From: Candidatus Dadabacteria bacterium
GTDB taxonomy: Bacteria > Desulfobacterota_D > UBA1144 > Nemesobacterales > Nemesobacteraceae
Reading direction: 5' to 3'
DNA length: 64,000 nt
Assembly: GCA_028823955.1 (NCBI GenBank)
Contig: JAPPFE010000016.1
Span: 12,497-76,496 of the forward strand
Made by a program: the position numbers and the translations under genes
Shown here: in pieces, positions 3,558-52,004 of the stretch
Numbering within the stretch: the stretch's first letter is position 1
Layout: each line of letters starts with the position of its first letter
The notes under the pieces: generated by a model
The model's input: the letters and a program-made list of their open reading frames with translations, nothing else
What the model was told of the DNA's origin: nothing
Database searches by the model: none

Positions 3558-3563
3558 GTTGAT

Positions 3564-5542: not shown

Positions 5543-5559
5543 CGGGCAACTATCGGTGA

Positions 5560-5991
5560 TTATTCTCCAGGGATGATTTTCCTTCGGAATTCCTCCGGCA
5601 TCCGCACGGTTTTTCTCTCTTTGTAGTTAAAAAATACGAGAGAGGTCTTGACCTTGGCGATCTCCTTGCCGTTTTTTTCGTTCACCAGTGCGTAAATAAG
5701 TTCAAGAAAATTGTTGCCATACTCGCCGATGCCGATGCTTATTTTCATTACGTCCCCGTAAAACGCTTCCGAACTGTAAGTGATCCCTACGTCTCCCATT
5801 ATAATTCCCACTCCCTCTATATCGGCTTCAGTGTAGCCGTGTGCCGCGAGGAATCTTACGCGGGCCTCGTGCGCGAGGGTTAACACGGAGTCGTGTCCAA
5901 GATGAGAACCGTAATTTATGTCGTCTATTCTTATCGGAATTTGCGTTGAAAAGACGAATCTGCTCGGTAGATCTATTTTTATTCTTGCCAT
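5560..5991 (-). CDS. Acyl-CoA thioesterase, 4HBT/YbgC-like hotdog fold
   Basis: 143 aa. Size and sequence pattern fit the YbgC/FcoT thioesterase family. The call is from pattern only. Confidence 0.6.
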   Translation of the reverse strand: MARIKIDLPSRFVFSTQIPIRIDDINYGSHLGHDSVLTLAHEARVRFLAAHGYTEADIEGVGIIMGDVGITYSSEAFYGDVMKISIGIGEYGNNFLELIYALVNEKNGKEIAKVKTSLVFFNYKERKTVRMPEEFRRKIIPGE

Positions 5992-6123
5992 TTTCGCGGG
6001 TTCTCTTCCTGAATATATCTGTATTTTCGGGGCTATAAAAGAATTGTTTGCTTTTTACTTTTCAGGGGTTATAGTCATGCCTCAATAATTGTTCCAATAA
6101 ATTTTTCTAGGAGGCGGAATTAG

Positions 6124-34345: not shown

Positions 34346-34421
34346 TCCGGCGTAGCTCAGTTGGCAGAGCAGATGACTGTTAATCATCGGGTCGCAGGTT
34401 CGAGCCCTGCCGCCGGAGCCA
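34346..34421 (+). tRNA. tRNA-Asn (anticodon GTT)
   Basis: Hand-folded cloverleaf. Acceptor stem TCCGGCG/CGCCGGA. D-arm GCTC-AGTTGGCA-GAGC. Anticodon stem GATGA/TCATC with loop CTGTTAA. T-arm GCAGG-TTCGAGC-CCTGC. Discriminator G and encoded CCA. Confidence 0.85.
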
Positions 34422-34519: not shown

Positions 34520-35212
34520 TTGATGGAAATAAGTGAGGAATTTTTCAGTTTTGTTTCAGCTCTTCTTGTACTGTATGTGGGAAATCACCTGTTGGATGAG
34601 GAGCGTCGAAACCGGAGAATTAGAGCTCTTTACCAAGCACTTTACGAAGAACTCAAAGAGATTCGAAATGCATATAATGAAGAGGTGGGAGTTTTTTGGA
34701 AGGCACTTGAAGAGGAAGGAGAAGTAAAAGTCTTTCCGGTCAACTTATCACTTACTCAAGATTATCTTGCCGTCTATCATTCAAATGCGAATCTTATCGG
34801 TGAGATCCCGAGCTCAAAACTGCGACGTAAAATAGTAAAAACATATACATCGTTAAAAGTTCTTATTGACTATTACAAACAAAATAACGGATTGCTGGAT
34901 CAGCTTGAAAAGGAAAAGAAGGAATTAGTAAACCAACCTGTGTTAGAGGCTCTTATTGATTATTACAAACAGGATAACAAAATACTGTATGAGCATGAAA
35001 AAAGAGAGTCGACAAAAAAAACCGTTGAATATGATCCAACTGTGCTAGACTTCACAAAACGTCTACAAGAACGTCATCACCGTTTTGAGAGATCTTTGAA
35101 AAAACTCATCAAAACGTTAAAAAAAGAATTGTCTAAATTTAACTACGAAAACCCTGTCCGAACAATCTCCATTCTTCGATCATCAAGCCTGACAACGCTG
35201 CAGCTTTTGTGA
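34520..35212 (+). CDS. AT-rich hypothetical protein with an N-terminal TM helix, coiled-coil and an internal direct repeat
   Basis: 230 aa and clearly lower GC than its surroundings. The peptide repeat LIDYYKQNNGLLDQLEKEKKEL / LIDYYKQDNKILYEHEKRE. It is the first gene after the tRNA. Confidence 0.45.
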   Translation: MMEISEEFFSFVSALLVLYVGNHLLDEERRNRRIRALYQALYEELKEIRNAYNEEVGVFWKALEEEGEVKVFPVNLSLTQDYLAVYHSNANLIGEIPSSKLRRKIVKTYTSLKVLIDYYKQNNGLLDQLEKEKKELVNQPVLEALIDYYKQDNKILYEHEKRESTKKTVEYDPTVLDFTKRLQERHHRFERSLKKLIKTLKKELSKFNYENPVRTISILRSSSLTTLQLL

Positions 35213-35713
35213 TGTCCATACCGCCCCCGACCATGCTTTGAAACGCCCACGGCACTTCGGATGTTTTGGCCGATGTGGCCACACAGGCGTGCTTTTCCAC
35301 ACAAATTGGTGTCATATCCCAAACCAACCTTGAAAAGCGTCATAGTGGGCGACTGAGGCCGCATATACGGGGAGTTTTTTGCCTTCAACGATCCTGACCC
35401 GCCTGCCCGCCATTGAGTGTCTGGGGGGGCATCCGAGCGGATCGAGCCTATACAAACGCGTTCTCGTGCCGGTATGTATCTCAAGGCATACTATACCGGC
35501 GTGGTTGTATTTCGGTGCCCCAAAGCACCTGGAGCGGAGATTCCTTCCAAGCGGAATCTGGCCAGAGTAACCCATTGAGGTTATAACTCTCTTCACCAAT
35601 TTGGCAGAAAGAAGTTGCTTCATTTTGCCTTTGACGGCCTGTTAATGTACATTATAATCTGTTTTCATTGGTTTTCATAGACATTCGACCGACAACTGGC
35701 GAAGAGGATTGAA

Positions 35714-35940: not shown

Positions 35941-38679
35941 ATGGCACTGAAGAAGTCTCAACTTTACAGCTCGCTCTGGTTCAGCTGTGACGAACTGCGC
36001 GGCGGCATGGACGCCAGCCAGTACAAGGACTATGTCCTGTTCATGCTGTTCATCAAGTACGTCTCCGACAAGTACGCCGACTCGGACGACTTTGCTCCGC
36101 CGGTGACCATCCCAGAGGGCGCGAGCTTCACCGATATGGTCAAGCTCAAGGGCAAGAGTGACATCGGCGACAAGATCAACACGCAGATCATCCGGCCGCT
36201 GATCGATAACAACTCCCGCTTGGCCCACAGCGACTTCCCCGACTTCAACGATCCAGACAAGCTCGGTGAAGGCAAGGCGATGGTGGATCGCCTGACGAAT
36301 CTGATCAGCATCTTCCAGAGGCCGGAATTGGATTTCTCGAAGAACCGGGCCGACCACGACGACATTCTTGGCGACGCCTATGAGTACCTGATGCGGCACT
36401 TCGCTACCGAGAGCGGCAAGAGTAAGGGCCAGTTCTACACGCCGTCGGAGGTCAGCCGCGTCATTGCTCAGGTCATCGGCATCTCACCCGATACCGCTGT
36501 CGCATCGACCACTGCCTACGACCCGACCTGTGGATCGGGATCGCTGCTGCTCAAGGTCGCCGCCCAAGCGGGCAAACACATCACGCTCGAAGGGCAGGAA
36601 AAGGATCAGACAACAGCAGGCCTTGCCCGCATGAACATGATCCTGCACGACTTCCCGACGGCCAACGTCCTGCAGGGCAATACGCTCGCCAGCCCCAAGT
36701 TCAAGGACGGCGAACAGCTCCGCACCTACGACTACGTGGTGGCCAATCCACCATTCTCTGACAAGACCTGGAGCAACGGCATCACGCCCAGCGCCGATCC
36801 CTATCAGCGTTTCGCTTGGGGCTCACCGCCCGGCAAACAGGGCGACTACGCCTACCTGTTGCACATCATCCGCTCGATGAAGAGTAACGGCAAAGCCGCC
36901 TGCATCTTGCCGCACGGCGTTCTGTTCCGAGGCAATGCCGAGGCCGTGATCCGCAAGAAGCTCGTGCGGTCCGGGTATCTCAAGGGCATCATCGGGCTGC
37001 CCGCCAACCTGTTCTACGGCACAGGCATCCCGGCCTGCATCCTCGTGCTCGACAAGGAGAACGCCAACGCCCGCAAGGGCATTTTCATGGTCGATGCCTC
37101 CAAAGGTTTCATCAAGGACGGTTCGAAGAACCGCCTCCGCGAGCAGGACATCCACCGAATCGTCGACACGTTCAATCGTCAGGCGGATACGCCGCGCTAC
37201 GCCCGGATGGTTCCGTTCGAGGAAATCGACGACCCGAGGAATGATTACAACCTCAACCTGCCTCGTTACATTGACAGCACCGAACCGGAGAACATCCAGG
37301 ACATCGACGGCCACCTGCGGGGTGGCATTCCGGAGCGGGACATTGACGATCTGGATATCTACTGGAAGGTGATTCCCGGCGTGCGCGAAGTGCTGTTCGA
37401 GGATGCCGTGCGCCCCGGCTACTGCCAGTTGCGACTGCCTATCACTGAAGTCAAGGCTGCGATTCTCAAACACGACGAGTTCGACGCATTCAAAGCCACT
37501 GTGACCGACATCTTCGACAAGTGGCGATCCGCAAACGTGAAGCGACTCAAGGGGTTTGATCAGGAAGGTAAGCCCAAGGAACTGATCGCAACCATTGCGG
37601 AAGATCTTCTCGCCGCATTCAAGACCGCACCGCTGCTGAATTCCTATGACATGTACCAGCACCTGATGGATTACTGGGCCGCGACGATGCAGGACGATTG
37701 CTACCTCATCGCCGCCGACGGTTGGACGGCGGAAACCCACCGAGTGCTGGAGGAGGTCAAGAGTGGCAAGAAGAAAGGTGAGATGAAGGACAAGGGCTGG
37801 GCATGCGATCTGATTCCCAAGCCCTACATCGTCGCCCGGTATTTCGCTAAAGAGCAGGTCGAGCTGGATGCCCTCCAGGCAGAACTCGACGACGCCAGCG
37901 CCAGTCTCACCGAACTGGCCGAGGAGCACGGCGGCGACGAGGGCGCACTGAAGGATGTGTCAACCAAGGGCGACGCCCAGAAGGCGTACAACCAGGCGCT
38001 TGTCGCCGTGTGGAACGAGGAAGACAAGGTGGCGTGCGACAAGTACAACACCCTAATCAACGGGACCGAAGAGTATGCGGTCGAGCTTCGCAATCTCACC
38101 GACCATCACCACATCTCGATCTTGAAGAACAGCAAGGGCAACCTGACGCTCAAGGCTATCAGGGACCGCCTGGCATCGACGGGCGACAAGATCGAGCAGA
38201 AGACGCTCATCAAGTACCTCGATGTCGACAAACAGCAGAAGGCCAAGACGAAGGAGGCCGCCGAACTGCTGACCGAAGTTGGGATGCGTTATCGCGAGCG
38301 ACTGAACGCCGACCCGCTGCCCGAGGAACTCGCGGACCTGCAAGTCACCGTCTGTTATCTGGATCTACTCGACAAACAGAGCGTCCTCAAAAGCAAGGTC
38401 AAAGATGCCGACACCGTCCTCAATCAGCTCGTCTATGACAAGTACCCCACGCTCAGCGTCAAGGAGATCAAAACGCTGGTAGTCGACGACAAGTGGCTGT
38501 CCGCCTTGGCAGCTGCTGTGCAGGGCGAACTGAACCGGGTGTCGCAGACGCTCACCGGCCGCATCCGCCAGCTAGCAGAGCGCTACGAGACGCCGCTGTC
38601 GCAGCTCACTGATCTCGTGACCGACCTATCCACCCGTGTGGACAAACACTTGGCAAGAATGAGGGCGGTATGGAACTGA
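35941..38679 (+). CDS. hsdM: Type I restriction-modification system methyltransferase subunit, long form with a C-terminal coiled-coil extension of about 430 aa
   Basis: HsdM N-terminal domain, a SAM-binding region (DPTCGSGSLLL), and the catalytic NPPF (VVANPPFSDKTW). 912 aa. Confidence 0.9.
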   Translation: MALKKSQLYSSLWFSCDELRGGMDASQYKDYVLFMLFIKYVSDKYADSDDFAPPVTIPEGASFTDMVKLKGKSDIGDKINTQIIRPLIDNNSRLAHSDFPDFNDPDKLGEGKAMVDRLTNLISIFQRPELDFSKNRADHDDILGDAYEYLMRHFATESGKSKGQFYTPSEVSRVIAQVIGISPDTAVASTTAYDPTCGSGSLLLKVAAQAGKHITLEGQEKDQTTAGLARMNMILHDFPTANVLQGNTLASPKFKDGEQLRTYDYVVANPPFSDKTWSNGITPSADPYQRFAWGSPPGKQGDYAYLLHIIRSMKSNGKAACILPHGVLFRGNAEAVIRKKLVRSGYLKGIIGLPANLFYGTGIPACILVLDKENANARKGIFMVDASKGFIKDGSKNRLREQDIHRIVDTFNRQADTPRYARMVPFEEIDDPRNDYNLNLPRYIDSTEPENIQDIDGHLRGGIPERDIDDLDIYWKVIPGVREVLFEDAVRPGYCQLRLPITEVKAAILKHDEFDAFKATVTDIFDKWRSANVKRLKGFDQEGKPKELIATIAEDLLAAFKTAPLLNSYDMYQHLMDYWAATMQDDCYLIAADGWTAETHRVLEEVKSGKKKGEMKDKGWACDLIPKPYIVARYFAKEQVELDALQAELDDASASLTELAEEHGGDEGALKDVSTKGDAQKAYNQALVAVWNEEDKVACDKYNTLINGTEEYAVELRNLTDHHHISILKNSKGNLTLKAIRDRLASTGDKIEQKTLIKYLDVDKQQKAKTKEAAELLTEVGMRYRERLNADPLPEELADLQVTVCYLDLLDKQSVLKSKVKDADTVLNQLVYDKYPTLSVKEIKTLVVDDKWLSALAAAVQGELNRVSQTLTGRIRQLAERYETPLSQLTDLVTDLSTRVDKHLARMRAVWN

Positions 38680-40520
38680 AGCCGGGATACAAACAGACGG
38701 AAGTCAGTCCTATTCCTGCAGACTTACATGCCGTTATAACTAACCCACAACGATTCAATAAAGATTGGGAGATAAAGCGGTTGGGGGATTTTGCCGACTG
38801 TGTGGCAGGTGGAACACCGAGCACGCTCAATAAAGAATATTGGGGTGGATCTATTAGATGGATGAGTTCCAGTGAATTAAACAACAAGATTATTCAGGAT
38901 GTTGAGAAGCGTATAACAGAGCGAGGTTTACGGGAATCGAATACCAAAATCATTCCGCCTAGATGTGTTTTAATAGGTTTGGCAGGTCAAGGAAAGACAA
39001 GGGGGACTGTGGCTATTAACTTGGTTGAGATTTGTACGAATCAGTCAATTGCAGCAATTTACCCCAATGAATCTTTTGTTCCAGAGTACCTCTATTATAA
39101 CCTTGATGCCCGCTACCACGAGTTACGTGGAATGTCTGCAGGAGATGGGGGTCGTGGAGGATTGAATCTTCAAATTATTCGATCTATCTTTGTGCCTTTT
39201 CCAGATATTACTGAACAATATGCAATTGCCAAAGTATTGTCGGATGTAGACGGATTACTCGCGGCCTTAGAGGTGCTGATAGTCAAAAAACGCGCCATCA
39301 AACGAGCCGCGATGCACCAACTTCTCACTGGTAGGATGCGCTTGCGGGAGTTTAACGGGGAATGGAGGACAAAGAAGCTCAGAGACTTACTTGCTTATCA
39401 GCGACCAGATAACTACATAGTGCAATCAACTGAAGATGCAAAGCATGGAGAAATCCCCGTATTAACAGCCAATAAGTCGTTTGTCTTACATTATACGGAT
39501 GAGGAGTTTGGTGTCTGTTCTGATGTTCCAGTCATTGTTTTCGACGATTTTACTACGGATTGTAAGTACGTAACATTTCCTTTCAAGGTGAAGTCGTCGG
39601 CAATAAAGCTCCTTCATGCTAACCATGACCGAATTAGTCTCAGGTATGTATACGAGCGCATGAAATTGGTTCATTTCCCGTTGGTTACTCACAAACGCTA
39701 CTATATCTCGGAGTATCAAAACATTGAGTTTTTTGTTCCTAGTTATGATGAACAAGTAGCAATTGTTTCTGTATTATCCGATATGGATGCTGAGATTGCA
39801 GCCCTCGAGCAACGTCGCGCCAAAATCGCCGACCTCAAGAAGGCGATGATGCAGGAACTGCTGACTGGCAAGACGCGGCTGGTTGAGCCTCAGGCGTTGG
39901 ATGAGCAGACCGATGCCGCGTTGGGCAACGCCAAAGGACACAACTGGGCGATCAACGAGGCAGTCGTGATCGCCACGCTGGTCAAGCACTTCGGAGGGGA
40001 GGACTACCCCTTAGGCCGCAAGCGGTACACGAAGCTTTCCTACCTGTTGCACCGCCATGTGGAACGGGAAGCCGATGGCTATCTCAAAAAGGCGGCTGGT
40101 CCCTACAACCCGCAAACCAAGTACGGTGGCCCGGAAAAGATCGCCAAGCAGAACGGCTACATCACGCAGCACAAAGGCTTGAAGGGACACAGCGGATTCA
40201 TCGCCGCAGACAACATCGCCCAGGCCGAAGGCTACTTCGAGAAGTGGTACGGCCCAGAAGTCATCCAGTGGCTGGAGCAGTTCCGCTACAAGAAGAACGA
40301 CGACTTGGAGTTGCTGGCCACCGTGGACATGGCAGCGTTGGAACTGCGAGCATCCGGAAAGAGCGTGACTGTCGCTGCCGTGAAGGACGTTATCACCAGC
40401 CATCCGGAGTGGGAGGCGAAGTTGGATCGCACCGCGTTCTCCGACGCGAACATCGCCGAAGCAATCAAACAGAGCGACGCCCTGCTGGGGGCTGAAATTG
40501 CCGGAGGTTCCCATGCCTGA
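38670..40520 (+). CDS. hsdS: Type I R-M specificity subunit with two TRDs, fused to an uncharacterised C-terminal domain of about 210 aa
   Basis: Two target-recognition-domain-like halves separated by conserved helices ([26 protein letters not shown]; [26 protein letters not shown]). The TRDs are low-GC. The ORF then continues about 210 aa in GC-rich sequence with no HsdS similarity. Its start overlaps the hsdM stop. Confidence 0.75.
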
Positions 40521-43500
40521 AAGAGCCCGACCCGAACGGCTAACCCAGAACCGCGTGGTAGCCCTGTTCACCGACAAGACCCGCTCCGACTGGCTGGAGT
40601 ATCGCTATCTCGGTGACTGGCATCAGCGTGAGAATAACCGGCCCATTGAGGCGGAACTGCTGCGAGCAAACCTCCATGAGCGTGGTTATACGGATGCGCA
40701 CATCTCAGCCGCGTTGCAAAAGCTGGAAACCGCTGCCGATACAACCGGCGTGACACTCTACCAGGCCAACTTACGCACCTACAACCTGCTACGCTACCCG
40801 GTGAAGGTGCAGGTCGCCGTCGGACGGTCGCACGAGGATGTGCATCTAATCGACTGGGAGCACCCGGAAAAGAACGACTTTGCTCTGGCCGAAGAAGTGA
40901 CCCTCAAGGGTGGCTACGAGCGCAGGCCGGACTTGGTGCTCTACGTCAACGGCATTGCGGTGGCTGTGATTGAGCTGAAACGCAGTTCGGTAGAAGTGGC
41001 CGACGGGGTGCGCCAAATCATCACGAATCAGGAAGAGATATTCAACAAGAACTTCTTTTCCGCCGTGCAATTGGTCTTCGCGGGCAACGATTCGCAGGGA
41101 CTGCGCTACGGGACCACCGGCACGCCGGAGAAGTTTTTTGTCCAGTGGAAGGATGAGGACGGCGGCACGGCGATGGAGCCGGGAACGCTCCTGGACAGGC
41201 CGCTGGCCCAGATGTGCCGAAAGGATCGCTTGCTCGATTTGATGCGGAACTTCATCATCTTCGACGCGGGCCAGAAGAAAGTGCCTCGGTCGCACCAGTA
41301 CTTCGGCCTCAAGGCCGCGCAGGAACGAATCGGCAAACGCGAGGGTGGCGTGATCTGGCACACTCAGGGCAGTGGCAAGAGCATTCTCATGGTGCTGCTG
41401 GCTAAGTGGCTGATGGAATACGACCCCGACGCTCGCATTCTGGTGGTTACCGACCGTGACGAACTGGATAAGCAGATCGTGGGCGTCATGCGTAACGCCG
41501 GGGTTATCGTCGAAGACGCCCCCTCACCGCGCATTACCTCGCGGGCGCAGTTCGTCGAGAAACTGGGCGCGACCACGCCTCGCTTGCTGTGTGCGCTGAT
41601 CCACAAATTTGACACGGCCGACCTCAGGGGCGATCCGCCGCCGATTCACGGGCGCTTCTACGTGTTCGTGGATGAGTGCCACCGCACCCAAGGCGGCGAC
41701 ATGAACCGGCAGATGAAGCGATGGATGGAGGATGCCATCTTCATCGGCTTCACCGGCACGCCGCTACTCCGCAAGGACAAGAAGACCACACGCGAAGTCT
41801 TCGGCACTTACATTCACACCTATAAGTTCCACGAGGCCGTGGCGGACAAGGTGGTGCTAGACCTCAAGTACGAAGCGCGTGATGTCCCCCAGCGGCTGAC
41901 CTCGCCGCAGGCCATCGATGCCTGGTTCAACCGGAGGACGCAGAACCTGAACAACTTCCAGAAGGCGGTGCTACGCAAGCGATGGGCAACGATGGAAGAG
42001 TTGATGAGCGCGGGTGAACGCAAACAACGCATCATCGCCAATATCATTGAAGACTTCACCCTCAAGCCGCGTCTCAATAATGATCGTGGTACAGCCATCC
42101 TAGTCGCGGCGTCGATCTACGACGCGTGCCACTACTTCCGGCTATTCCAGAATACGTCGTTTGGTCAGTATTGCGGGATCATCACCTCGTATGAACCGAA
42201 GCATAATGCCATCTCGCGTGAGCCCGCCAACAGTGACGAGCGGTATAAGTTCGATACATACACGCAGCATGTGCTATCCGACGGCCAGACGACCAAGCAC
42301 TACGAGGACGAGATGAAACGCCGGTTCATAGAGGAACCGGCCAACTGCAAGCTGCTGATCGTGGTCAGCAAGCTCCTGACCGGCTTCGATGCCCCGTCCT
42401 GCACGTACATCTACCTCGACAACGAACTGCACGACCACAACCTGTTTCAGGCGATCTGTCGGACAAACCGGCTAGATGGGGACGACAAGAACTACGGATA
42501 CATCGTGGACTTCAAGGAATTGTTCTGCGACGTGCAGGAAGCCATCGCCGTCTACAGTTCGGACGAGCTGGACATCGATGCCAACGGTAGCGATGGCAAT
42601 GTGATTGTGAAGAACTGGCTCGAAGAGGGCAAGAAGAAGCTTGATGCCGCCCGCGAGGCATTGAAGTATCTGTGTGAGCCTGTGGCTCAGCCCAGGGAGA
42701 TGGAGCAGTATCTCCACTACTTTTGTGGCGACGCCAGCGATCCGAACGCCCTCAGCGAGACCGAGGTCCCTCGTATCTCGTTCTACAAGGCTGTCGTGAC
42801 CTTCGTAAGGGCCTTTGCTGCTATTTCGCAGGACCTTTCGGACGCTGGTTACACCAATGCCGAGATTGCGGTGCTCAACAACGAATTCGAATTTTTCAGC
42901 GATACCCGAGCCGCCATCAAGAAGCACTCCGGTGAGGAACTGGACATCAAACCGTACGAAGCGGACATGCGCCACCTCATCAATACCTACATCCAGGCTG
43001 ACCCGGCCGATCAGTTGGGATCGGTGGACAACTATTCCCTGGTTGAGTTGATTATCGAGACGGGTATCCATGACGCCATTGCCAAGAAGCTCAACGAGAA
43101 GGGCAAACTCTCGAAGAACGCTGTGGCAGAGGGCATCATCAACAACGTCCGCAAGACGATCATCCGCGATCAGCTCACCGACCCGAAATTCTACGAGGAA
43201 ATGTCGAAGTTGTTGGACGACCTCATCGAAATGAAGCGGAACATTACCGAGTCGTATGAAGACTTCCTGCAGAAGGCCGAGGCACTTGTGCTCCGCATGA
43301 CTGGCAAGTCAACGAAGGGAACGCACCCCACGGTGTTGAACGGCCATCCGGAAGCAGTCCGGCTGTTTAACAATCTCGCGAGCATTCCGGCAGACACGTT
43401 TCAATGTCCCACTGACGAAGACGAGAAGGCAGAGCTCGCGTTGGACATCAACCGTGCAATGCGCGAGGAGGCACCGGCGGGATGGAAGGGAGACGACACG

Positions 43501-43605
43501 CGAGAAAAGCAGGTGCTTAACGCCCTGTTCCCCTTGATGGATCGCGACCGCAAGGCGACAGAGGCGCTGTTTGAGATTATCAAGAATCAATCGGGGTACG
43601 CATGA
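40513..43605 (+). CDS. hsdR: Type I restriction enzyme endonuclease/helicase subunit
   Basis: N-terminal nuclease domain, SF2 helicase motifs (HTQGSGKS Walker A, DECHR), and the HsdR C-terminal domain. Its start overlaps the hsdS stop. Confidence 0.9.
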
Positions 43606-44318
43606 GCGAAGTAATCGAACTTGGCGACATATCGATCACGGTGACGCGGAAAGAGATCAAGAACGTGCATCTTTCCGTCCACCCGCCCAGTGGCCGGGTC
43701 ACCATGTCCGCCCCGAAAGAGACGCGTCTGGAGGTTGCTCGCGCCTATGCCATCTCAAAGATAAGTTGGATTCGCGAGCAGCAAGAGAAGCTTCGGAAGC
43801 AGGCACGGGAAACGCCGCGTGAGTTCGTGGAGAGAGAAAGCCACTACCTGTGGGGCCGTCGATACTTGATGACGGTAATTGAGCAGGATTCGAAGCCCTG
43901 GGTCGCTCTTGATCCCAAGCGCATCACCATGAGCGTTCGCCCGGGCAGCGACCAAGCCAAAAGAGCGAGCATCATCCATGAATGGCATAAATCGCTGCTG
44001 CATGAATTCATTCCTCCGCTAATCGCCAGGTGGGAGCCGAAGTTAGGCGTTCACGTCGTAGCCTACTTCCTCCAGCGCATGAAGACCAAGTGGGGAAGCT
44101 GCAACCACAATGCGGGGCACATCAGATTGAATACGGAGCTGGTCAAAAAGCCCAAGGACTTGGTCGAATATGTCGTGGTGCATGAGATGGTCCATCTTAT
44201 AGAACCAACACACAGCGATAGGTTCATTTCGATCCTTACCGATCACTACCCATCATGGCGCGAATCCAGAGCAGAACTGAACGAATTGCCGCTGGCTGCT
44301 GAGGAGTGGAGAGAATGA
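43602..44318 (+). CDS. DUF45/YgjP-like zinc metallopeptidase (M48-type HExxH), a frequent accessory of type I R-M loci
   Basis: [18 protein letters not shown]...[20 protein letters not shown] is the WGSC...HExxH signature of DUF45. ATGA overlap with the hsdR stop. Confidence 0.75.
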
Positions 44319-45409
44319 GCGTTCTGGATGCTGTGATTGCGGTCCTTCAAGAAGCAGGTAAACCGCTTCACGCCAAGGAGATTACTAAGCGCATTCTCTC
44401 GAAAAACCTCTGGAAGACCTCCGGCAAGACCCCTGCTGCGACAGTCAGTGCCAGGCTTTACGCCGATCTCAAGAAAAACGGCGACACGTCCCCTTTCATC
44501 CTTCATGCACCTCAAAAGTTTGGTCTTAGGACGTCTAAGGCAGTTGATAAGTCGGATGTGGAAGCACAAACGAAAACAACAACTGCAACAACCGTCAAGG
44601 GCCACAGGAAGACCTATTCCTTTACCGATTCGGCTGAAAAAGTCCTCGAGAAGTTCGGCGATAAGCGGCCCATGCATTACCGCGCCATCACCAACAAAGC
44701 TCTGGAAATTGGATGGTTGTTGACCGAGGGAAAGACACCGGAAGCGTCGATGTACGCGCAAATCTTGACGGAAATTAAACGCTTTAACCGCCGTGGGAAG
44801 CAGCCTCGATTCGTTCAACATGGTAAGGGGTATGTTGGCCTTTCAAAATGGATGGGTCGGGGGCTCGCATTTGAGATCGAACAGCACAACAAAAAGGTGC
44901 GCCAGGCGCTGCATAAACGTTTGCTTGAAACGGAGTGGGATGCCTTTGAGGAATTGATTGCGCGTCTCTTGGCAGAAATGGGTTTTGAGGAAATCGAGGT
45001 TACCAGTCGCAGTAAGGATGGCGGCATCGATGTTCGGGGAACCTTGGTTGTCGGTGATGTCATTCGGACGAGAATGGCTATTCAAGTAAAGAAATGGAAG
45101 CGCAACGTACAGGCTCCGGTTGTCCAACAGGTCCGAGGGAGTCTCGGCACCCACGAGCAGGGGCTCATCATCACAACCAGTGATTTCAGTGCAGGCGCAC
45201 GCAGGGAATCCGCCAGACCGGATGCCACGCCCGTCGGGCTAATGAGTGGTGAGCAACTGGTTTTACTGCTCATCGAAAACGGCATTGGGGTTTCACGACG
45301 AAGTCATGACTTATTTGAACTCGAGGATATATCCAGTGCAGAGGTCGGCACCAGTGCTGGTGCACCCAGTAATCAATTGAATGATAAAGGACAAGAACAG
45401 CAGGAATAG
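44315..45409 (+). CDS. mrr: Mrr-like restriction endonuclease with an N-terminal HARE-HTH/winged-helix domain
   Basis: N-terminal wHTH (LDAVIAVLQEAGKPLHAKEI). A C-terminal Mrr_cat-like PD-(D/E)xK domain (GGIDVRG...IQVKKW). ATGA overlap with the DUF45 stop. Confidence 0.7.
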   Translation: MSVLDAVIAVLQEAGKPLHAKEITKRILSKNLWKTSGKTPAATVSARLYADLKKNGDTSPFILHAPQKFGLRTSKAVDKSDVEAQTKTTTATTVKGHRKTYSFTDSAEKVLEKFGDKRPMHYRAITNKALEIGWLLTEGKTPEASMYAQILTEIKRFNRRGKQPRFVQHGKGYVGLSKWMGRGLAFEIEQHNKKVRQALHKRLLETEWDAFEELIARLLAEMGFEEIEVTSRSKDGGIDVRGTLVVGDVIRTRMAIQVKKWKRNVQAPVVQQVRGSLGTHEQGLIITTSDFSAGARRESARPDATPVGLMSGEQLVLLLIENGIGVSRRSHDLFELEDISSAEVGTSAGAPSNQLNDKGQEQQE

Positions 45410-45412
45410 GAG

Positions 45413-48400
45413 ATGGCGGACCGGTCGGACACAAACAGAACGCGGGCATCCATGGCTCACCTTTTAGGTGAGGCATCGAGGAACCTTGCGCGTTTTCTGG
45501 AAAAGGTACTGCCAGGCCTTTTTGACAATTGGTGGGACGAGGCTGTCGTCAACATTCTTTCATTTCAGCAGCGGCGTCGGGTCAAAGAATGCGATATCAA
45601 TTCCTTGGCATCTTTGGATCTCGCTGCGCTGCTTCGTGTGCTTGATCAGAACTGGTATCAGATATCAACGAAACTGGAGTTGACGTCAGAGGCACGCCAC
45701 TTTGTTAAAGAGATGCAGACAGTTCGAAACAGATGGGCGCATGCGGGCAGTGAGGGATTCCCCGTAGACGACGTATACCGGGACCTGGATACGTTACAGC
45801 GCTTCGCTGTTGTCGTTGAGGCTAATGAAAGCCTGCTCGACGAAGTGCGCGAGACAAAGGCGTCCTTGCTTTCCAAGGACCGTCTTGGCCCTGATCAAGA
45901 TGATGCTGTTGTGGAAAGTCCATCTCTGGAGGCACCGGGGTCTGATACGGAATTTACGCCCGGTCAGATCGTTCATCTCAAATCAAATCCAGCCATGCGT
46001 GGTGCCGTCGTTTCCTCAATGCTAGGCAAACCGGAGAACCGATTCCTAGTGTTCATGGACGGCGAAACGCATACCTACTATGCATCACAGCTAAAAGCGG
46101 AAGACCAACCGGAGGACGAATCGCGGTTCTTGCCCTGCGATGAATTCCATTCATACCTCACCGCTTTGCAGATTCGATATCCAGGACTTTCAACGCTTTA
46201 TTCTTTGAATGCCGCCCGTGTGGATTTCATCCCATATCAATTCCGCCCCGTCTTGAGATTCATCCGATCAGATCGTCCCCGATTACTGGTTGCTGACGGT
46301 GTTGGCGTCGGCAAGACCATTGAGGCTGGTTTGATTCTCCGAGAGCTGCAGGCCAGGCGCGACATACGATCCATCTTAATCATTTGTCCCCGACCGCTTG
46401 TTACCGAACGCAAATGGCAAATTGAGATGAAGCGGTTTGAGGAGCGTTTTGTTCATCTGGATGGCCCAACACTGAGGTACTGCATCAACGAAATGGATCT
46501 GGAAGGGTTTTGGCCAGAGCAGCACCAACGAATTATCATCCCATATTCCCTGTTCGATGAAGCGCTTTTATATGGTTCGGACGGCAGGCGAAAACGCAAA
46601 AAAGGCCTGCTGGACTTGGATCCGCCCCCTCGGTTTGATTTGGTCATCGTAGACGAAGCTCATCATATACGGAACCAGGATACGTTCAGTCACAAGGCGG
46701 TGCGATTTTTCTGTGACCATGCGGAAGCCGTGATCTTTCTGACCGCGACTCCCATTCAACTCGACAATCATGACCTGTTCGTCTTGCTGAACACCCTTCG
46801 CCCCGACCTGATTCTCGATCAAGAGAGCTTCGAGCACATGTCAGAGCCGAATCCGTTCATTAATCAAGCGGTAGCCTTGGCCCGTGCCCAAGAGCCGGAA
46901 TGGGCCATCAAAGCCAAGGAGGCTCTGGACAACGCGGCGGGAACGTCTTGGGGGCAGTCAATTCTCAGGCACAATCCAGAGTTCAATCGTATAAATGCAT
47001 GGCTCGCCGACGGCAAAATCGGTTCGGAAGAGCGCGTGCAGCTGATAACCGCTCTCGAGGCTCTGCATACGTTTTCAGGGATAATCAACCGAACGCGCCG
47101 CCGCGATATTGGAGAGTTTACGGTACGCAAGCCCGAAACCGTCGTTGTTGAATTTACTTCGAATCAGAAAGATCTGCATGACGAGTTGCTTCAGGTGCAG
47201 GCAGAGATATTCAGCAGGCTTCACGGGGATGTCAATGTCAAGTTCATGATGACAACCATTCGCAGGCAGGCGGCCAGTTGTCCTTTTGGACTTGTACCCT
47301 TCCTCGAGGAAATACTGAGCCGCCACCTTGATGAATTGTCATGGGAAGAAGCGGACAACACCGAGTTTGTCCCCAAAAGCGACGCTGTTGACAGCATTGA
47401 ATCACGTATCCAGGCAATCCTTGGAAAGGCTCGTGACCTCGATCCATACGATCCGAAACTGGACGCTCTCCGCAATATCATCCGGGACAAGCAAAAGCTA
47501 CCCAATAACAAGGTGATGCTTTTCAGCAGCTTCCGTCACACGCTTCACTATCTCTATGAACATCTCAAGGCGGATGGATTTAGGGTTGGACTTGTTCACG
47601 GCGGAACACCTGATGAGGACCGGGTCGGGCTTCGGAATCGCTTTGAATTGCCGCCAAATCAGGATGACGGCCTCGACATTTTATTGTTTTCAGAGATTGG
47701 CTGCGAAGGTCTGGACTACCAGTTCTGTGATTGCATCGTCAATTACGACCTGCCATGGAACCCCATGCGGGTGGAACAGAGGATTGGCCGCATAGATCGG
47801 AATGGACAGAAGAGCGAGAGTGTCGCCATTTTCAATTTGATCACGCCGGGCACCGTCGATGCGGATATCTACGAGCGGTGCTTGGTGCGGATTGGTGTGT
47901 TCAACAGCGCCCTCGGTGGCAGCGAGGAGATACTCGGGGAGATCACCAAGGAGATTCGCAGCATCGCGGAAAATTTCTCCTTGAACGAAACAGAACGCGG
48001 AGAGCAGCTTCAACAACTGGCGGACAACAAAATCAGGCTGATACAGGAACAGGACGAACTTGAACAGAAACAACTCGAACTGTTCGGCATCCGTCTGCCC
48101 CAAGATCAGATGAAGCGGGAAATCGAGCAAGCATCGAGCTACTGGCTGTCTCCTGTATCGATACGAAGGCTTATTACGATTTACCTTCAGCGCACTTGTG
48201 GCAGGGATCAGGAATTCATACTTGGCGAAAAAGCGCTTAAAACGTTGCGTCTGTCCCAAGAAGCCAGAAACAATCTGTTGCGAGATTTCCGGAGTATCCC
48301 ACGTCAGAACACGACCGTTTATCGCGAATGGGAAAACTGGCTCAAAGGGGGGGACCCGCATCTCCTTATTACATTCGACTCCGAGTGCGCTTCGCAACAC

Positions 48401-49012
48401 CCCGAAGCGGTCTTCATAATGCCCTTTCATCCTTTTGTAAAACAGGCGGCCGCGACCTTCGATACAAAAAGGCGGGTCATGACGGTTTTGCAGTACAAAA
48501 GCAATAAAGTCCCCAAAGGCAGCTATGAATTCGCGGTCTATCAGTGGCAGTTCCACGGCGTTAGGGAGGACTTGGTTCTACAGCCGGTTGCTTCGAATGA
48601 TGTTGTAACCAAGCACATCTCCAGTCTTCTTGAGGGGGCAGAAAGCATAACAACGGAAAGAGTCGATACCCCAGATCCGGATACATGGAACGGTCTGGAT
48701 GCTCAGCATCATAAGATGTGGTCTGAGGCGCGCATCCGGCATCAGCGTAGAACCCAGGAGCTGGCGGAGTACCGGAGGGAAAGTCTTACAACAAGCCACA
48801 GAGCACGAATTGCTCTCTTGGAGGAACAACTCGAGCAGGCAACAAATGAAAGAATCCAGAAGATGCGACGTTCTCAGATAGCCGCGGCGGAGGCCGACTA
48901 TGCGCGACGCATTCAGGAGTTGGATATAGCGATGGAGAGAGCTGAGGTAACCGCCGGGCCCGTAGCTTATGGTGTCATTCAAGTCGATGAGGGCTCGACC
49001 AATGCCGAGTGA
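45413..49012 (+). CDS. 1199-aa fusion: N-terminal Swt1-like HEPN domain plus SNF2-family (SF2) helicase/ATPase plus a C-terminal domain of unknown function with coiled-coil
   Basis: HEPN R-x4-H motif in VRNRWAHAG. SNF2_N Walker A (ADGVGVGKT) and DEAH box (DEAHHIRN...LTATPIQ). Helicase_C motifs (LLFSEIGCEGLDYQ, QRIGRIDRNGQ). Starts 3 nt after the mrr stop. Confidence 0.75.
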   Translation: MADRSDTNRTRASMAHLLGEASRNLARFLEKVLPGLFDNWWDEAVVNILSFQQRRRVKECDINSLASLDLAALLRVLDQNWYQISTKLELTSEARHFVKEMQTVRNRWAHAGSEGFPVDDVYRDLDTLQRFAVVVEANESLLDEVRETKASLLSKDRLGPDQDDAVVESPSLEAPGSDTEFTPGQIVHLKSNPAMRGAVVSSMLGKPENRFLVFMDGETHTYYASQLKAEDQPEDESRFLPCDEFHSYLTALQIRYPGLSTLYSLNAARVDFIPYQFRPVLRFIRSDRPRLLVADGVGVGKTIEAGLILRELQARRDIRSILIICPRPLVTERKWQIEMKRFEERFVHLDGPTLRYCINEMDLEGFWPEQHQRIIIPYSLFDEALLYGSDGRRKRKKGLLDLDPPPRFDLVIVDEAHHIRNQDTFSHKAVRFFCDHAEAVIFLTATPIQLDNHDLFVLLNTLRPDLILDQESFEHMSEPNPFINQAVALARAQEPEWAIKAKEALDNAAGTSWGQSILRHNPEFNRINAWLADGKIGSEERVQLITALEALHTFSGIINRTRRRDIGEFTVRKPETVVVEFTSNQKDLHDELLQVQAEIFSRLHGDVNVKFMMTTIRRQAASCPFGLVPFLEEILSRHLDELSWEEADNTEFVPKSDAVDSIESRIQAILGKARDLDPYDPKLDALRNIIRDKQKLPNNKVMLFSSFRHTLHYLYEHLKADGFRVGLVHGGTPDEDRVGLRNRFELPPNQDDGLDILLFSEIGCEGLDYQFCDCIVNYDLPWNPMRVEQRIGRIDRNGQKSESVAIFNLITPGTVDADIYERCLVRIGVFNSALGGSEEILGEITKEIRSIAENFSLNETERGEQLQQLADNKIRLIQEQDELEQKQLELFGIRLPQDQMKREIEQASSYWLSPVSIRRLITIYLQRTCGRDQEFILGEKALKTLRLSQEARNNLLRDFRSIPRQNTTVYREWENWLKGGDPHLLITFDSECASQHPEAVFIMPFHPFVKQAAATFDTKRRVMTVLQYKSNKVPKGSYEFAVYQWQFHGVREDLVLQPVASNDVVTKHISSLLEGAESITTERVDTPDPDTWNGLDAQHHKMWSEARIRHQRRTQELAEYRRESLTTSHRARIALLEEQLEQATNERIQKMRRSQIAAAEADYARRIQELDIAMERAEVTAGPVAYGVIQVDEGSTNAE

Positions 49013-52004
49013 TTATGATCAAATCAGAGCGGACAATATCCGGGAATACGGTGAGGGAACCCGCCATCTATCTCTTCTTGAGCGTTTATATACGGACCGG
49101 ACGCATTTTATTTTCGAGCTGTTGCAGAACGCTGAAGACGCTGGGGCGACAAGAATTCTGTTTGAGCTTTCCGAAGAAATGCTTGAAGTCAAGCATGATG
49201 GCCGCCCCTTTAACGAGCTCGATGTGAGGGGTGTTTGTGGGGTCGGAGAAGGCGAAAAAGCTGAAGACCTGACACAAATCGGAAAATTTGGGATTGGATT
49301 TAAGTCGGTTTATGCCTACACATCCTCTCCCGAGGTTCATTCTGGGGACGAGCATTTTCGCATTGAGCATTATGTGCGTCCCTGTCCCGCTGATCCCAAA
49401 GAAGCCGGTGACTCTTGGACCACTCTTTTCTGCTTCTCGTTTGATGTACCGACGATGGAGGCTGAAACGGCTTTCAGTGAAATCGCTGCCCGGCTGCGCA
49501 ACCTGAGTGCTAGGACCCTTCTGTTTCTTCGAAGAATCAAGGAAATCGAATACAAGCTTCCCGACGAATCAAGTGGTGTATATCTGCGTGAAGAAATGCC
49601 CCGCGGTCCTGCCAGACAAGTGACCGTGATCGGGCAAAATAACGGTGAAGATGAGGATGAGAACTGGCTTGTCTTTGAGAAGCCGGTTTCCATCCCAAAT
49701 AGCGACTACCCGGTGAAGGTTGAAGTGGCCTTTAAGCTCGAGACGGACACGAAAGAAAAGACCGAGTGGATAACTCGTATCAAGGATGCACCCTTAGTGG
49801 TGTATTTCCCAACAGAAAAGCCAACTCGCTTTGGATTTCTCATTCAGGGCCCGTACAGAACTACACCGTCCCGAGACAATATTCCCAAGGATGACGATTG
49901 GAATACAAACCTTGTTGAGGAGACGGCCAGCCTGCTCGTGGATGCGTTGATAAATCTAAGAACAATGGGGTTGCTGACAGTATCTTTACTCGAATCAATG
50001 CCTATCCGAATGGATGATTTTCCTAAAGGAAGCATGTTTTTTCCCATAACCGAATCTGTCCGCGCTGCCTTTCTTGAACATGAATTGCTGCCTGCGGACG
50101 ACGGAACTTTCGCGAACGCAAAAGACGCCAAGCTCGCCCGTGGTGGGGATTTGAGGAAGCTCCTTGGCCAGGAGCAACTCCGCTCCCTATTTCAATCCGG
50201 CGGTCAGGTTAAATGGTTGGTTGGGACAATCACTCGGGACCGAAAGCCGGACTTGCGAACGTATCTGATGAGTGAGCTTGGTGTGGAGGAGATCACGCCC
50301 GATGGATTTGCCCGAAAGCTCTCAGGGACATTTTTGAAAGTTCAACCAGATGACTGGATGACTTTAATGTACGGGTATGTTGGTGATGAAAAAGCTCTCT
50401 GGCAGACGGGAAGCGGATACTGGAATCCTCCAGGCCCGTTACGTTCTAGACCGATTATTCGTCTTCAAGATGGTTCACAAGTTATACCGTTCCGGGAGGA
50501 TGGATCTCCAAATGCATACTTGTCGGATGGCAATCACACTGAGACTTCCCTGCCAGTCGTAAAGGCAGATCTCTGCCGGCACAAGGAGACCCAACAGTTT
50601 TTAAGGGCCCTGGGTATCCCCGAGTTGGATCTCGTGGAAGAAGTCATTGAAAAGGTCCTGCCAAAATATGCAAGCGACGATTCAGTAGTTGCTATTGAAG
50701 AGCACCAACGCGATATCATTGTAATTGAAAAGGCTTACGGCACGGATTCCCAAGAAAAGAAGAGTCGCCTCCGTGATCGGCTATGTGAAACGCCTTTCGT
50801 GCGTGCAGAGAGTCAAGATGTCGAAGAGCCTATGTACCGGAAGCCGTGCGAGCTTTATTTCGGAAGCAATGAACTGCGATTGTATTTTTCTGGAAACAAC
50901 GCGATTGGATTCGTCAACACTGAATACCCTGAATCCGTTAGATCGCTGTTTGAGGATTTTGGGGTAGTGGATTCTGTACGGGTTTCCCGGAAGGGACAAA
51001 ACGGGCAAGGGCATGTTGTTCTTAAAGATCATCATGGTTGGCATGAAAGGGGTCTTGATGGTTTTGATCCAGACATTTTTGTTGAGGGGTTAGAAATCGC
51101 GTTGGCTTCACCAACGCTGGAGAAAAGTCAATTCATCTGGAATAACATTGCTGTTCGACATTTTTCATGCATTCGTGGTGTGGTCGAGTCGTGTCCGCGA
51201 CAAACTTATGAGGGCAGCACCGAGGAAGATCGAATATCAGAATTTGGACGTTTGCTTATAGAAAATACTTGGCTGCCGTTTTCAGATGGAAGCCTGAAGA
51301 AACCGGGGGAACTCACACTCGATGATCTTCCCGACTCCTTCATAAGAGACGAAAAGCTGGCCCAGCAACTCGGGATGAAGCTGGATCTTATTGCTAAACT
51401 CGCGGAAGAAACAGGCGTAACTGCTGAGGATATCGAACTGCTTAAACTTCATCCGACAGAGTTCCAGCAATGGAAAGCGGCAATATCAGCCGCTAAGGAA
51501 AAACCGGCATTCCCCGAGAGGGCTTCTTCGGACCCGGAGCGCAGACGAGAGAAACTTACTGAGCAACTTGGCGACTCTCCCACCAAGAAATACGAGCAAC
51601 GGGACAGAAGTGTTCGGACAACAAGAAGTGCAATTGATCCGGTTCTGTGGCTCAGGAATCAATACAAGAATGATGCTGGACAGATGATATGCCAGATATG
51701 CAAAGAGGAGATGCCTTTTAGGAAGCGTGATGGGGAATACTATTTCGAAGCTGTTGAGGCTCTTACCAAAGATCATTTCACAATAGAACATGAAGCACAA
51801 TTCTTGGCTTTGTGTCCTTTGTGCTCAGCAATGTACAAAGAATTCATTAAGCCTGATGAAGAGGCTATGGTGGAATTGAAACACGTAATAAGGAACACGG
51901 ATGAGTGCGAAGTTCCTCTGCGTCTCGGGGGACTGAATACAAGCATTCGATTTGTCGAAGCCCACTTTCAGGATATCAGGACCATACTTGAGGAGCAGGA
52001 ATGA
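49002..52004 (+). CDS. 1011-aa protein: N-terminal sacsin/Hsp90-like GHKL ATPase, large middle region, and a C-terminal Cys4 HNH/zinc-ribbon-like module
   Basis: Bergerat-fold motifs ELLQNAEDAGAT (N box), HDGRPF (G1) and GKFGIGFKSVY (G2). C-terminal CQIC...H..IEHE...CPLC. Its start overlaps the upstream gene's stop (ATGCCGAGTGA). Confidence 0.7.
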   Translation: MPSDYDQIRADNIREYGEGTRHLSLLERLYTDRTHFIFELLQNAEDAGATRILFELSEEMLEVKHDGRPFNELDVRGVCGVGEGEKAEDLTQIGKFGIGFKSVYAYTSSPEVHSGDEHFRIEHYVRPCPADPKEAGDSWTTLFCFSFDVPTMEAETAFSEIAARLRNLSARTLLFLRRIKEIEYKLPDESSGVYLREEMPRGPARQVTVIGQNNGEDEDENWLVFEKPVSIPNSDYPVKVEVAFKLETDTKEKTEWITRIKDAPLVVYFPTEKPTRFGFLIQGPYRTTPSRDNIPKDDDWNTNLVEETASLLVDALINLRTMGLLTVSLLESMPIRMDDFPKGSMFFPITESVRAAFLEHELLPADDGTFANAKDAKLARGGDLRKLLGQEQLRSLFQSGGQVKWLVGTITRDRKPDLRTYLMSELGVEEITPDGFARKLSGTFLKVQPDDWMTLMYGYVGDEKALWQTGSGYWNPPGPLRSRPIIRLQDGSQVIPFREDGSPNAYLSDGNHTETSLPVVKADLCRHKETQQFLRALGIPELDLVEEVIEKVLPKYASDDSVVAIEEHQRDIIVIEKAYGTDSQEKKSRLRDRLCETPFVRAESQDVEEPMYRKPCELYFGSNELRLYFSGNNAIGFVNTEYPESVRSLFEDFGVVDSVRVSRKGQNGQGHVVLKDHHGWHERGLDGFDPDIFVEGLEIALASPTLEKSQFIWNNIAVRHFSCIRGVVESCPRQTYEGSTEEDRISEFGRLLIENTWLPFSDGSLKKPGELTLDDLPDSFIRDEKLAQQLGMKLDLIAKLAEETGVTAEDIELLKLHPTEFQQWKAAISAAKEKPAFPERASSDPERRREKLTEQLGDSPTKKYEQRDRSVRTTRSAIDPVLWLRNQYKNDAGQMICQICKEEMPFRKRDGEYYFEAVEALTKDHFTIEHEAQFLALCPLCSAMYKEFIKPDEEAMVELKHVIRNTDECEVPLRLGGLNTSIRFVEAHFQDIRTILEEQE

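Follow-up and report, generated by a model that had tools for sequence, protein, structure and literature searches.

A coupled HEPN-SNF2 helicase and sacsin-type GHKL ATPase gene pair as a candidate mobile defence module built from known anti-phage parts

What do two long, overlapping genes of a Candidatus Dadabacteria bacterium do, and do they belong to a defence system that already has a name? The genes lie in a 64,000-nucleotide (nt) stretch of contig JAPPFE010000016.1 that was analysed as a whole (hereafter the window). Gene 1 is predicted to encode a SNF2-family helicase with an N-terminal HEPN domain, and gene 2 a sacsin-type GHKL ATPase ending in a four-cysteine (Cys4) zinc domain. An earlier note had proposed the two as an undescribed defence module. 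Sequence comparison establishes two apparently intact ATPases of known DNA-acting classes, a fixed and coupled gene order and a mobile, patchy distribution, and the pair seems to be an as yet unnamed relative of anti-phage systems already known (Tiamat and the DISARM/BREX helicases), not a wholly new kind. We put at roughly 0.6 the probability that it is an autonomous, horizontally mobile two-gene module built from known defence parts, in which two ATPases would sense DNA and HEPN would give the output. A role of the pair in defence or against mobile genetic elements, however exerted, is rather likely from its sequence features.

The two co-directional open reading frames (ORFs) were found where the earlier note had placed them: the sequence ATGCCGAGTGA (49002-49012) holds both the start codon of gene 2 and the stop codon of gene 1, an overlap of 11 nt, and a GAGGG Shine-Dalgarno-like element lies 8 nt 5' of the gene-2 ATG. 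There is an alternative in-frame ATG at 48969, to which the ORF listing extends the second ORF. Because all gene-2 homologues (n = 63) start at MPS(D/N)YD and an NCBI protein of 1000 aa from a Candidatus Dadabacteria metagenome-assembled genome (MAG), OXI02_01875, is 100% identical to the gene-2 product, 49002 was taken as the real start. The two are not the two longest ORFs of the island, as had been stated, gene 2 being only the third-longest (HsdR has 1035 aa). The identical 11-nt ATG..TGA geometry recurred in about 20 of 45 loci, most of the others lying between -8 and +10 nt, and this recurrence bears out the claim of obligate co-expression; the proposal of an obligately co-expressed, translationally coupled pair appears right.

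The linkage was examined from both sides. The gene-2-side scan covered one genome per GTDB species (80 loci; tblastn and ORF extraction), and the gene-1-side scan covered metagenomes (80 loci, 64 of which were evaluable, having at least 1.2 kb of downstream sequence). A SNF2 ORF lay directly upstream of the gene-2 homologue in 45 loci of the former, and the gene-2 homologue was the next gene downstream in 63 of the 64 evaluable loci of the latter, confirming that the genes are conserved as neighbours. The linkage is reciprocal and near-obligate, down to about 27-30% identity. The exceptions among loci whose gene 2 ends in the Cys4 domain (Cys4-type loci) were mostly contigs ending too early; in L022 the SNF2 gene lies 3.9 kb upstream, and in L035, where the C-terminus lies beyond the contig, no SNF2 gene was found. 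L022 (Thioalkalivibrio sp. HK1) has its HEPN-SNF2 gene at 2408-6061 and its sacsin-like gene from 10001, and the gap between them holds a second Cys4-domain match (8737-9138), pointing to an insertion or to a copy that has been rearranged or duplicated.

The C-terminal type of gene 2 tracks the partner perfectly, Cys4-type sequences having a SNF2 neighbour and those ending in a NOV_C domain having none upstream. In a neighbour-joining tree of the first 800 residues, all NOV_C-type sequences formed one clade without an upstream SNF2 partner, and the remainder consisted of SNF2-linked, CxxC-bearing gene-2 sequences. Two NOV_C-type loci (L051 and L060) have a distant (~33%) SNF2-like gene downstream. 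Directly beside one pair, a second sacsin-domain protein of 1131 aa is encoded divergently (L026:2871-6266, - strand).

The pair is spread patchily over more than 15 phyla and one archaeon, with carriers among Dadabacteria, Arenicellales, Tectimicrobiota, Desulfobacterota, Latescibacterota, Kiritimatiellia, Chloroflexota, Planctomycetota, Acidobacteriota, Actinomycetota (Micromonospora), Cyanobacteria (Nodularia) and Alphaproteobacteria, and in a Bathyarchaeia MAG. Rhizobium and Ensifer plasmids carry it under the RefSeq names 'helicase-related protein' and 'hypothetical protein', and the HEPN-SNF2 and sacsin-like genes occur together on six IMG/VR predicted viral contigs of 40-60 kb (L088-L092 and L094). 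The IMG/VR contigs L082-L087 carry a standalone Tiamat-like form instead of the pair. On plasmid p2 of Rhizobium bangladeshense (NZ_CP071614.1 163548-170415), a 176-aa ORF resembling a sigma factor or helix-turn-helix (HTH) protein precedes the pair and overlaps the helicase start by 4 nt, and the pair adjoins an annotated 'ABC-three component system'.

Gene 2 opens with a Bergerat ATPase of the sacsin/Hsp90 flavour, as had been read from the motifs ELLQNAEDA (39-47), HDGRPF (65-70) and GKFGIGFKSVY (94-104) in its translation. It matches Pfam SACS (1.1e-18) and NCBIfam P_loop_sacsin, the sacsin N-terminal ATP-binding domain (1.1e-26), and E39, N43, D46, the G2 box (G94-S102) and T141 are invariant in 63 gene-2 sequences. 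Among solved structures in the PDB, the best sequence matches were crystal structures of sacsin SR1 (1e-12), with Hsp90 at about 2e-3. An AlphaFold model of gene 2 reached a predicted local distance difference test (pLDDT) score of 85, its low-pLDDT segment at aa 83-98 being the lid, as is typical of GHKL ATP lids; a Foldseek search with this model retrieved full-length Hsp90, the N-terminal domain of MutL/PMS2, GyrB, MORC2 and also sacsin SR1. The motifs, the Bergerat fold and the transducer-like domain that comes after it place gene 2 in the sacsin/Hsp90 branch of the GHKL ATPases, with predicted ATP hydrolysis. A match to a PDB profile of the T4 anti-sigma factor AsiA (aa 45-107, E 1.2e-3) was weak and was treated as spurious.

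The protein body beyond the ATPase resembles Tiamat. Nine PADLOC TmtA models match gene 2, the best (PDLC03972, 4.6e-70) over model positions 33-808 of 1302, and the homologous region contains an invariant loop, G283-P-Y-R-T-T-P-S-R291, which we infer to be a phosphate sensor. Tiamat (TmtA) is reportedly a single-gene anti-phage system, attributed to Millman et al. in 2022. It is likewise listed as a single-gene defence system with a PD-(D/E)XK domain (10.1101/2024.10.26.620412). Gene 2 shares with it the sacsin-type GHKL ATPase and a body of about 700 residues, and is 36-39% identical to standalone Tiamat-like proteins over aa 1-815. The two differ at the C-terminus, where canonical TmtA has a NOV_C/DUF3883 PD-(D/E)XK nuclease and gene 2 a degenerate HNH zinc domain; a standalone Tiamat-like ORF (L065) shows SACS and NOV_C, as in genuine Tiamat, whereas no Pfam match to NOV_C was found in gene 2 and its TmtA match ends at model position 808. 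They differ also in company, since TmtA works alone and gene 2 has an adjacent SNF2 gene in all evaluable Cys4-type loci. The earlier note had matched the pair to no named system. This holds in so far as PADLOC v2 has no model set for it as a two-gene system, and a literature search, whose coverage of subscription papers was incomplete, found no description of it; but Tiamat had not been considered, and the TmtA models match aa 25-775 so strongly that automated tools would probably call gene 2 Tiamat.

What, then, is the Cys4 domain with which gene 2 ends? A profile of aa 866-1000 had a sole match (E 0.049), the HNH domain of EcoKMcrA, and the alignment brings both CxxC pairs into register; the fold, closest to the restriction enzymes McrA and TagI, is a beta-beta-alpha-metal (His-Me finger) fold with a Cys4 zinc site, and HNH matches in BFVD were weak (best 8.8e-3). 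Relative to McrA, EVHH has become EAVE in gene 2 (HH corresponding to V-E919), DN has become AQ (Asn to Q933) and CPNCH has become CPLCA (His to A942). The general-base His was lacking in all 40-odd paired homologues inspected, the position reading VE, VY or LR, not HH/DH, across the subfamilies examined. With Glu in place of the general-base His, Gln in place of the Asn and Ala in place of the metal-binding His, the domain is unlikely to act as a nuclease and is probably an HNH-derived zinc module; of the nuclease-like HNH end proposed earlier, the fold thus stands and the nuclease role is improbable. The domain is family-specific (962 clusters at 50% identity) and C-terminal in the 150 best matches, mostly proteins of about 1000 aa, the shorter ones looking like fragments. 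Since it is found only alongside a SNF2 partner, docking or DNA contact would be its likeliest role.

These residues also bear on a different reading, in which the pair would be a DNA-cleaving system with the HNH-like domain as effector nuclease, the SNF2 motor feeding it DNA, in the manner of restriction enzymes that join helicase and nuclease, and HEPN as backup. Its fold does lie nearest to McrA and TagI, HEPN-less pairs need some effector, two divergent members (L045 and L079) still retain N..CPNCH, and E919, E929, E947 and H988, invariant in gene-2 homologues, could form an alternative metal site. The general-base His is nevertheless replaced in every subfamily examined, the main clade is also without the Asn and the metal-binding His, and no HNH Pfam model scored above threshold on gene 2; we regard DNA cleavage as improbable.

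Two side observations concern the same end of the protein. At least two flavours of C-terminal Cys domain occur among the loci. Compared with L040, L044 and L053, the Cys domains of L015 and L037 are of the type seen in a distant clade (CQIC..TF..RNGEPYFEG..LCLC), whereas over the first 800 residues both proteins group with the clade of the window, so that a domain swap is indicated. The second concerns aa 815-942 (51444-51827), which weakly match the phage family phrog_15103 (E 1.2e-5, profile positions 134-251 of 280), the match spanning the gene-2 linker and the first half of the HNH-like domain.

For gene 1, the domains expected by the earlier note (Swt1-like HEPN, SNF2 and Helicase_C) were all recovered with Pfam profiles. 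HEPN_Swt1 (PF18731) scored 66.2 bits against a cut-off of 27.5; R105, W108 and H110 are invariant across 11 HEPN-bearing homologues, and 22 of 23 HEPN-bearing loci have RN[RK]WAH or a near variant of it (RNHWAH, RDRWAH). The R-x4-H of gene 1, like the N-box of gene 2, therefore holds on alignment, and HEPN appears to be an intact toxin-type domain, predicted to act as an RNase, in most members. The fusion was present in 56 of 73 evaluable gene-1 homologues from metagenome loci and is an accessory, not a core part of the pair, as which it had first been presented: it is missing from about a quarter to a half of pairs.

In some pairs, usually where the HEPN fusion is missing, an ORF of about 205 aa lies between the SNF2 and sacsin-like genes (L002:9339-9989, L005:9340-9954, L008, L010 and L015; also L013:9255-9971). 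Its N-terminus is helical, and towards the C-terminus it has a conserved block, KKLRV.F.DGTVI...DGYF.ETH.ST..KARYIQ. We considered it as a relocated HEPN and rejected this, as it had no Pfam or PHROG match and no HEPN appeared in a tblastn screen of the loci. The 176-aa ORF upstream of the Rhizobium pair was likewise rejected as a HEPN, having only a BLASTP match at E 0.045 and looking by eye like a sigma factor or HTH protein.

The motor that follows HEPN has motifs I (GVGKT), II (DEAHH), III (TATP), V (GCEGLDY) and VI (QRIGRIDRNGQ), each kept in at least 90% of 40 homologues, and matches Pfam SNF2-rel_dom (2.2e-16) and Helicase_C (5e-19). Its best PADLOC match is DrmD (PDLC02623, 3.4e-113, aa 181-1059), and further matches are BrxHI/II (2.6e-53), DrmA, HmaA (3e-40, best-scoring stretch aa 680-930) and DpdE. 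NCBIfam DrmD NF038317 gave 307.6 bits against a cut-off of 610, NF038318 146.7 against 950 and RapA 173 against 576; the NCBIfam DrmD match covers aa 675-1157, and among solved relatives RapA stands nearest to the motor (2e-33). The beta-rich segment at aa 181-227, which falls within the DrmD model match, is possibly Tudor/SH3-like, after the architecture of BrxHII and BR helicases (PMC12839542). The C-terminal region is present in all paired homologues, and a sequence search of solved structures with the N- and C-terminal regions of gene 1 gave no match. Gene 1 fits the helicase clade of DrmD, BrxH and HmaA, and is predicted to be a SNF2 translocase on double-stranded DNA.

Does the pair then belong to one of the systems that use such helicases? 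Gene 1 aligns end to end with the DrmD model and also matches BrxH and HmaA models, and it shares the N-terminal beta domain and C-terminal extension of the defence-associated SNF2 clade (PMC12839542), in which BrxHII and BR helicases combine Tudor, SNF2, inactive restriction endonuclease (REase) and alpha/beta domains (2026 survey, PMC12839542). HmaA, a SNF2-NOV_C protein, defends against T4 (PMC11232893). The Hma/BR systems use the same Swt1-type HEPN, there fused to the partner DUF499 ATPase and read as a backup suicide effector (PMC12839542), whereas in this pair HEPN sits on the helicase itself, which lacks the NOV_C of HmaA, and the partner ATPase is GHKL, not DUF499/BrxC. No DrmA/B/C/MI, BrxC/PglZ/PglX or HmaB/HmaC was found near the pair in the window or the loci, and no DISARM gene (drmA, drmB, drmC/drmMI) recurred in 129 neighbouring ORFs, MZB/DUF1998 occurring in 2. 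DISARM membership was rejected on the DrmD scores below the NCBIfam equivalog cut-offs and the missing core genes, BREX membership on the missing partner genes, and Hma/Type-1 BREX-related membership on the absence of NOV_C from gene 1 and of HmaB/HmaC-like neighbours.

The theme itself has a precedent: a prediction of 2008 for restriction-modification (R-M)-like systems already described operons that unite a GHKL ATPase with a SWI2/SNF2 helicase and a nuclease (Iyer, Abhiman, Aravind 2008, PMC2292703). As in these MORC/paraMORC operons, where a GHKL+S5-like ATPase gene stands beside a SWI2/SNF2 gene, often with an HNH or REase domain, in mobile R-M-like loci, a GHKL gene adjoins a superfamily 2 (SWI2/SNF2) gene across phyla, and the predicted logic of ATPase clamp, motor and nuclease is the same (PMC2292703). 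The GHKL domain of gene 2 is placed by profiles in the sacsin/Hsp90 branch instead, sacsin having no mention in that paper (PMC2292703), and the HNH of the pair is degenerate, with an RNase (HEPN) as the likely output. Animal sacsin, to whose SR1 the Bergerat domain of gene 2 is closest, also joins an ATPase with a HEPN, but this is of another family (HEPN-T, PF05168) and on the same polypeptide as the ATPase, and sacsin is described as a chaperone and has no SNF2 partner. Plant NO VEIN combines a sacsin-type ATPase with NOV_C, as Tiamat does, and unlike the pair has no SNF2 partner.

The surroundings of the pair in the window raise the possibility that it serves another system. From hsdM through gene 2, seven co-directional genes (Table 1) overlap or lie at most 3 nt apart at their junctions. 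The only strong promoter-like site is at 35631-35658, 5' of hsdM, in scans whose promoter and terminator counts were at chance level and give no proof of an operon. The pair could thus be an accessory of type I R-M and Mrr, modulating or extending restriction by HsdMSR and Mrr and not autonomous, as this gene block, the single strong promoter-like site, in L009 a HARE-HTH-Mrr gene of 61% identity immediately 5' of the pair, and Mrr and/or HsdR homologues near it in L097, L101 and L106 would suggest. R-M/Mrr genes nonetheless accompany the pair in only a small share of about 125 loci (L009, L017, L034, L097, L101, L106 and a few more), and many pairs stand alone between unrelated genes. Elsewhere the pair sits between ABC transporter or glycosidase genes, cargo-like, as expected of an autonomous mobile cassette. 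The GC content is 0.55-0.60 in the R-M genes against 0.47-0.53 in the pair, a gap that suggests separate acquisition and a mosaic origin. We therefore hold an accessory role to be very unlikely, and the earlier placement of the pair inside an R-M/Mrr operon is valid for the window and a few relatives, not for the family at large. The 'tRNA-linked island' of the earlier note fares similarly: tRNA-Asn (34346-34421) is adjacent to the block, and the stretch directly after it has a GC content of 0.40, but the window holds no repeat of the tRNA 3' end and no integrase, and the adjacent 230-aa ORF (34520-35212) has no Pfam match, so that the description rests on adjacency.

Among the 129 immediate neighbour ORFs, the recurrent ones were GmrSD_N, Mrr_cat, AAA_21 (AbiEii-type), Schlafen/AlbA_2, MazF, TOTE primase and transposases, and the PADLOC models matched included PDC-S68, DpdF, PsyrT, AbiLi, HEC and PDC. 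Downstream of the pair in the window lie a DUF4143 ATPase and a UvrA-like ABC ATPase (with a UvrA DNA-binding domain match) on the opposite strand, and glyA on the + strand. The window's hsdM is unusually long, N6_Mtase covering only aa 140-448 of 912 with some 460 unassigned C-terminal residues beyond, and its hsdS is long too. In several loci, a RecD-like superfamily 1 helicase of about 1180 aa (AAA_19/AAA_30/UvrD_C_2) directly adjoins the pair (L004:7420-10968, L017:13086-16628 and L042:2139-5702; fragments in L006:13059-14576 and L009:13032-13586). This helicase, a match to the PADLOC candidate PDC-S68 at E=0, could simply travel with the pair often, or could belong to it as a third component in one subclade.

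Table 1. Positions in the window of the two genes, their domains and motifs, and the genes upstream.
Feature	Position	Strand	Details
hsdM	35941-38679	+	Pfam, 912 aa
hsdS	38670-40520	+	Pfam, 616 aa
hsdR	40498-43605	+	Pfam, 1035 aa
ygjP-like metallopeptidase	43602-44318	+	Pfam
HARE-HTH+Mrr (Mrr_cat) restriction enzyme	44306-45409	+	Pfam
Gene 1: HEPN, beta-rich linker, SNF2 ATPase, C-terminal region	45413-49012	+	1199 aa ORF
Swt1-like HEPN domain, predicted (aa 23-135)	45479-45817	+	Pfam PF18731, 3.9e-18
R-x4-H of HEPN, R105-NRWA-H110	45725-45742	+	read from translation
Beta-rich segment between HEPN and motor (aa 181-227)	45953-46093	+	conserved F181, G184, V187
SNF2 ATPase core (aa 262-830)	46196-47902	+	Pfam SNF2-rel_dom, ResIII, Helicase_C
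Gene-1 C-terminal region (aa 900-1199), charged helical tail at end	48110-49009	+	DrmD model to aa 1059
Coupling junction	48989-49012	+	GAGGG 48989-48993, ATG 49002-49004, TGA 49010-49012
Gene 2: sacsin-type GHKL ATPase, Tiamat-like body, HNH-fold Cys4 domain	49002-52004	+	1000 aa ORF
TmtA-homologous region (aa 25-775), including transducer-like beta domain	49074-51326	+	PADLOC PDLC03972
Bergerat ATP-binding domain (aa 28-175)	49083-49526	+	Pfam SACS, NF047352
N-box E39..N43..D46	49116-49142	+	
G2 box G94-Y104	49281-49313	+	
HNH-fold zinc domain (aa 866-1000)	51597-52001	+	C897xxC900 51690-51701, C938xxC941 51813-51824

How might the module work? The GHKL domains of Hsp90, MutL, MORC and GyrB dimerise on ATP, and HEPN RNases generally require dimerisation to form their active site. 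We propose that both proteins would be made at fixed stoichiometry through translational coupling and would form a complex, with the zinc domain of gene 2, a catalytically degenerate HNH fold that would have taken the place of the usual Tiamat PD-(D/E)XK nuclease, as a docking or DNA-contact module. The SNF2 motor of gene 1 would track along DNA, the GHKL domains would act as an ATP-driven dimerising clamp or switch on invader DNA, and their dimerisation would pair two HEPN domains into an active RNase, whose cleavage of RNA would arrest the infection in an abortive-infection-like manner. In the window, the cassette would have been appended to the type I R-M and Mrr operon as an additional layer. 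Even if a defence role is right, this specific combination of motor, GHKL switch and HEPN is doubtful. The more pointed version, in which the sacsin-type GHKL domain would be an ATP-gated dimerisation switch licensing the HEPN RNase carried on a SNF2 translocase, and thus a GHKL-controlled abortive infection of an undescribed kind, is a long shot.

Several points weigh against a module of two DNA-sensing ATPases with HEPN as its output. HEPN is missing from 17 of the 73 evaluable pairs and from whole subclades, so it cannot be the universal effector; the core pair is, by its motifs, without a recognisable active nuclease, and the HEPN-less variants are the main weakness of the favoured mechanism. 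Such a core pair may restrict invaders without a nuclease, by MORC-like compaction or remodelling. In gene 2, D66 of GHKL motif II is mostly Asp and not invariant. The physical complex, the GHKL dimerisation and the HEPN activation are all our inferences, and the defence-island flavour of the neighbours comes from a raw tally of gene families.

The pair might also be a non-nucleolytic silencer or remodeller, its GHKL clamp and SNF2 motor compacting invading DNA or stripping it of proteins (as MORC, SMCHD1 and DDM1), or a housekeeping pair for RapA-like RNA polymerase recycling and Hsp90-like chaperoning, but we give this little credence: the core pair without an obvious active nuclease, RapA as the closest solved relative of the motor and the nearness of the gene-2 folds to Hsp90, MutL and MORC2 are set against a RapA score far under its cut-off, a fused intact toxin-type HEPN in most members, and, against housekeeping in particular, the patchiness across phyla, the carriage on plasmids and viral contigs and the defence genes nearby.

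The two-gene module with HEPN output, as we read the pair, is an unnamed and widespread cassette that tools based on hidden Markov models would probably mislabel as Tiamat with an orphan DrmD beside it, an error that would swell the Tiamat counts and mask a distinct system. It amounts to a natural domain swap, one GHKL body occurring in one form fused to a PD-(D/E)XK nuclease and without a partner, in the other with a dead HNH and a SNF2(-HEPN) partner, and comparison of the two forms could reveal what is sensed by the Tiamat ATPase and how its coupling to an effector works. Cultured carriers exist (Rhizobium, Ensifer, Desulfobacter latus, Thioalkalivibrio, Micromonospora phytophila and Nodularia harveyana), and the bacterial pair offers a tractable model for sacsin-family ATPases, which are disease-linked and poorly understood. 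If a GHKL-licensed HEPN proved true, the combination of ATPase and HEPN in animal sacsin would echo an older prokaryotic immune partnership and could point to a nucleic-acid-linked role of sacsin.

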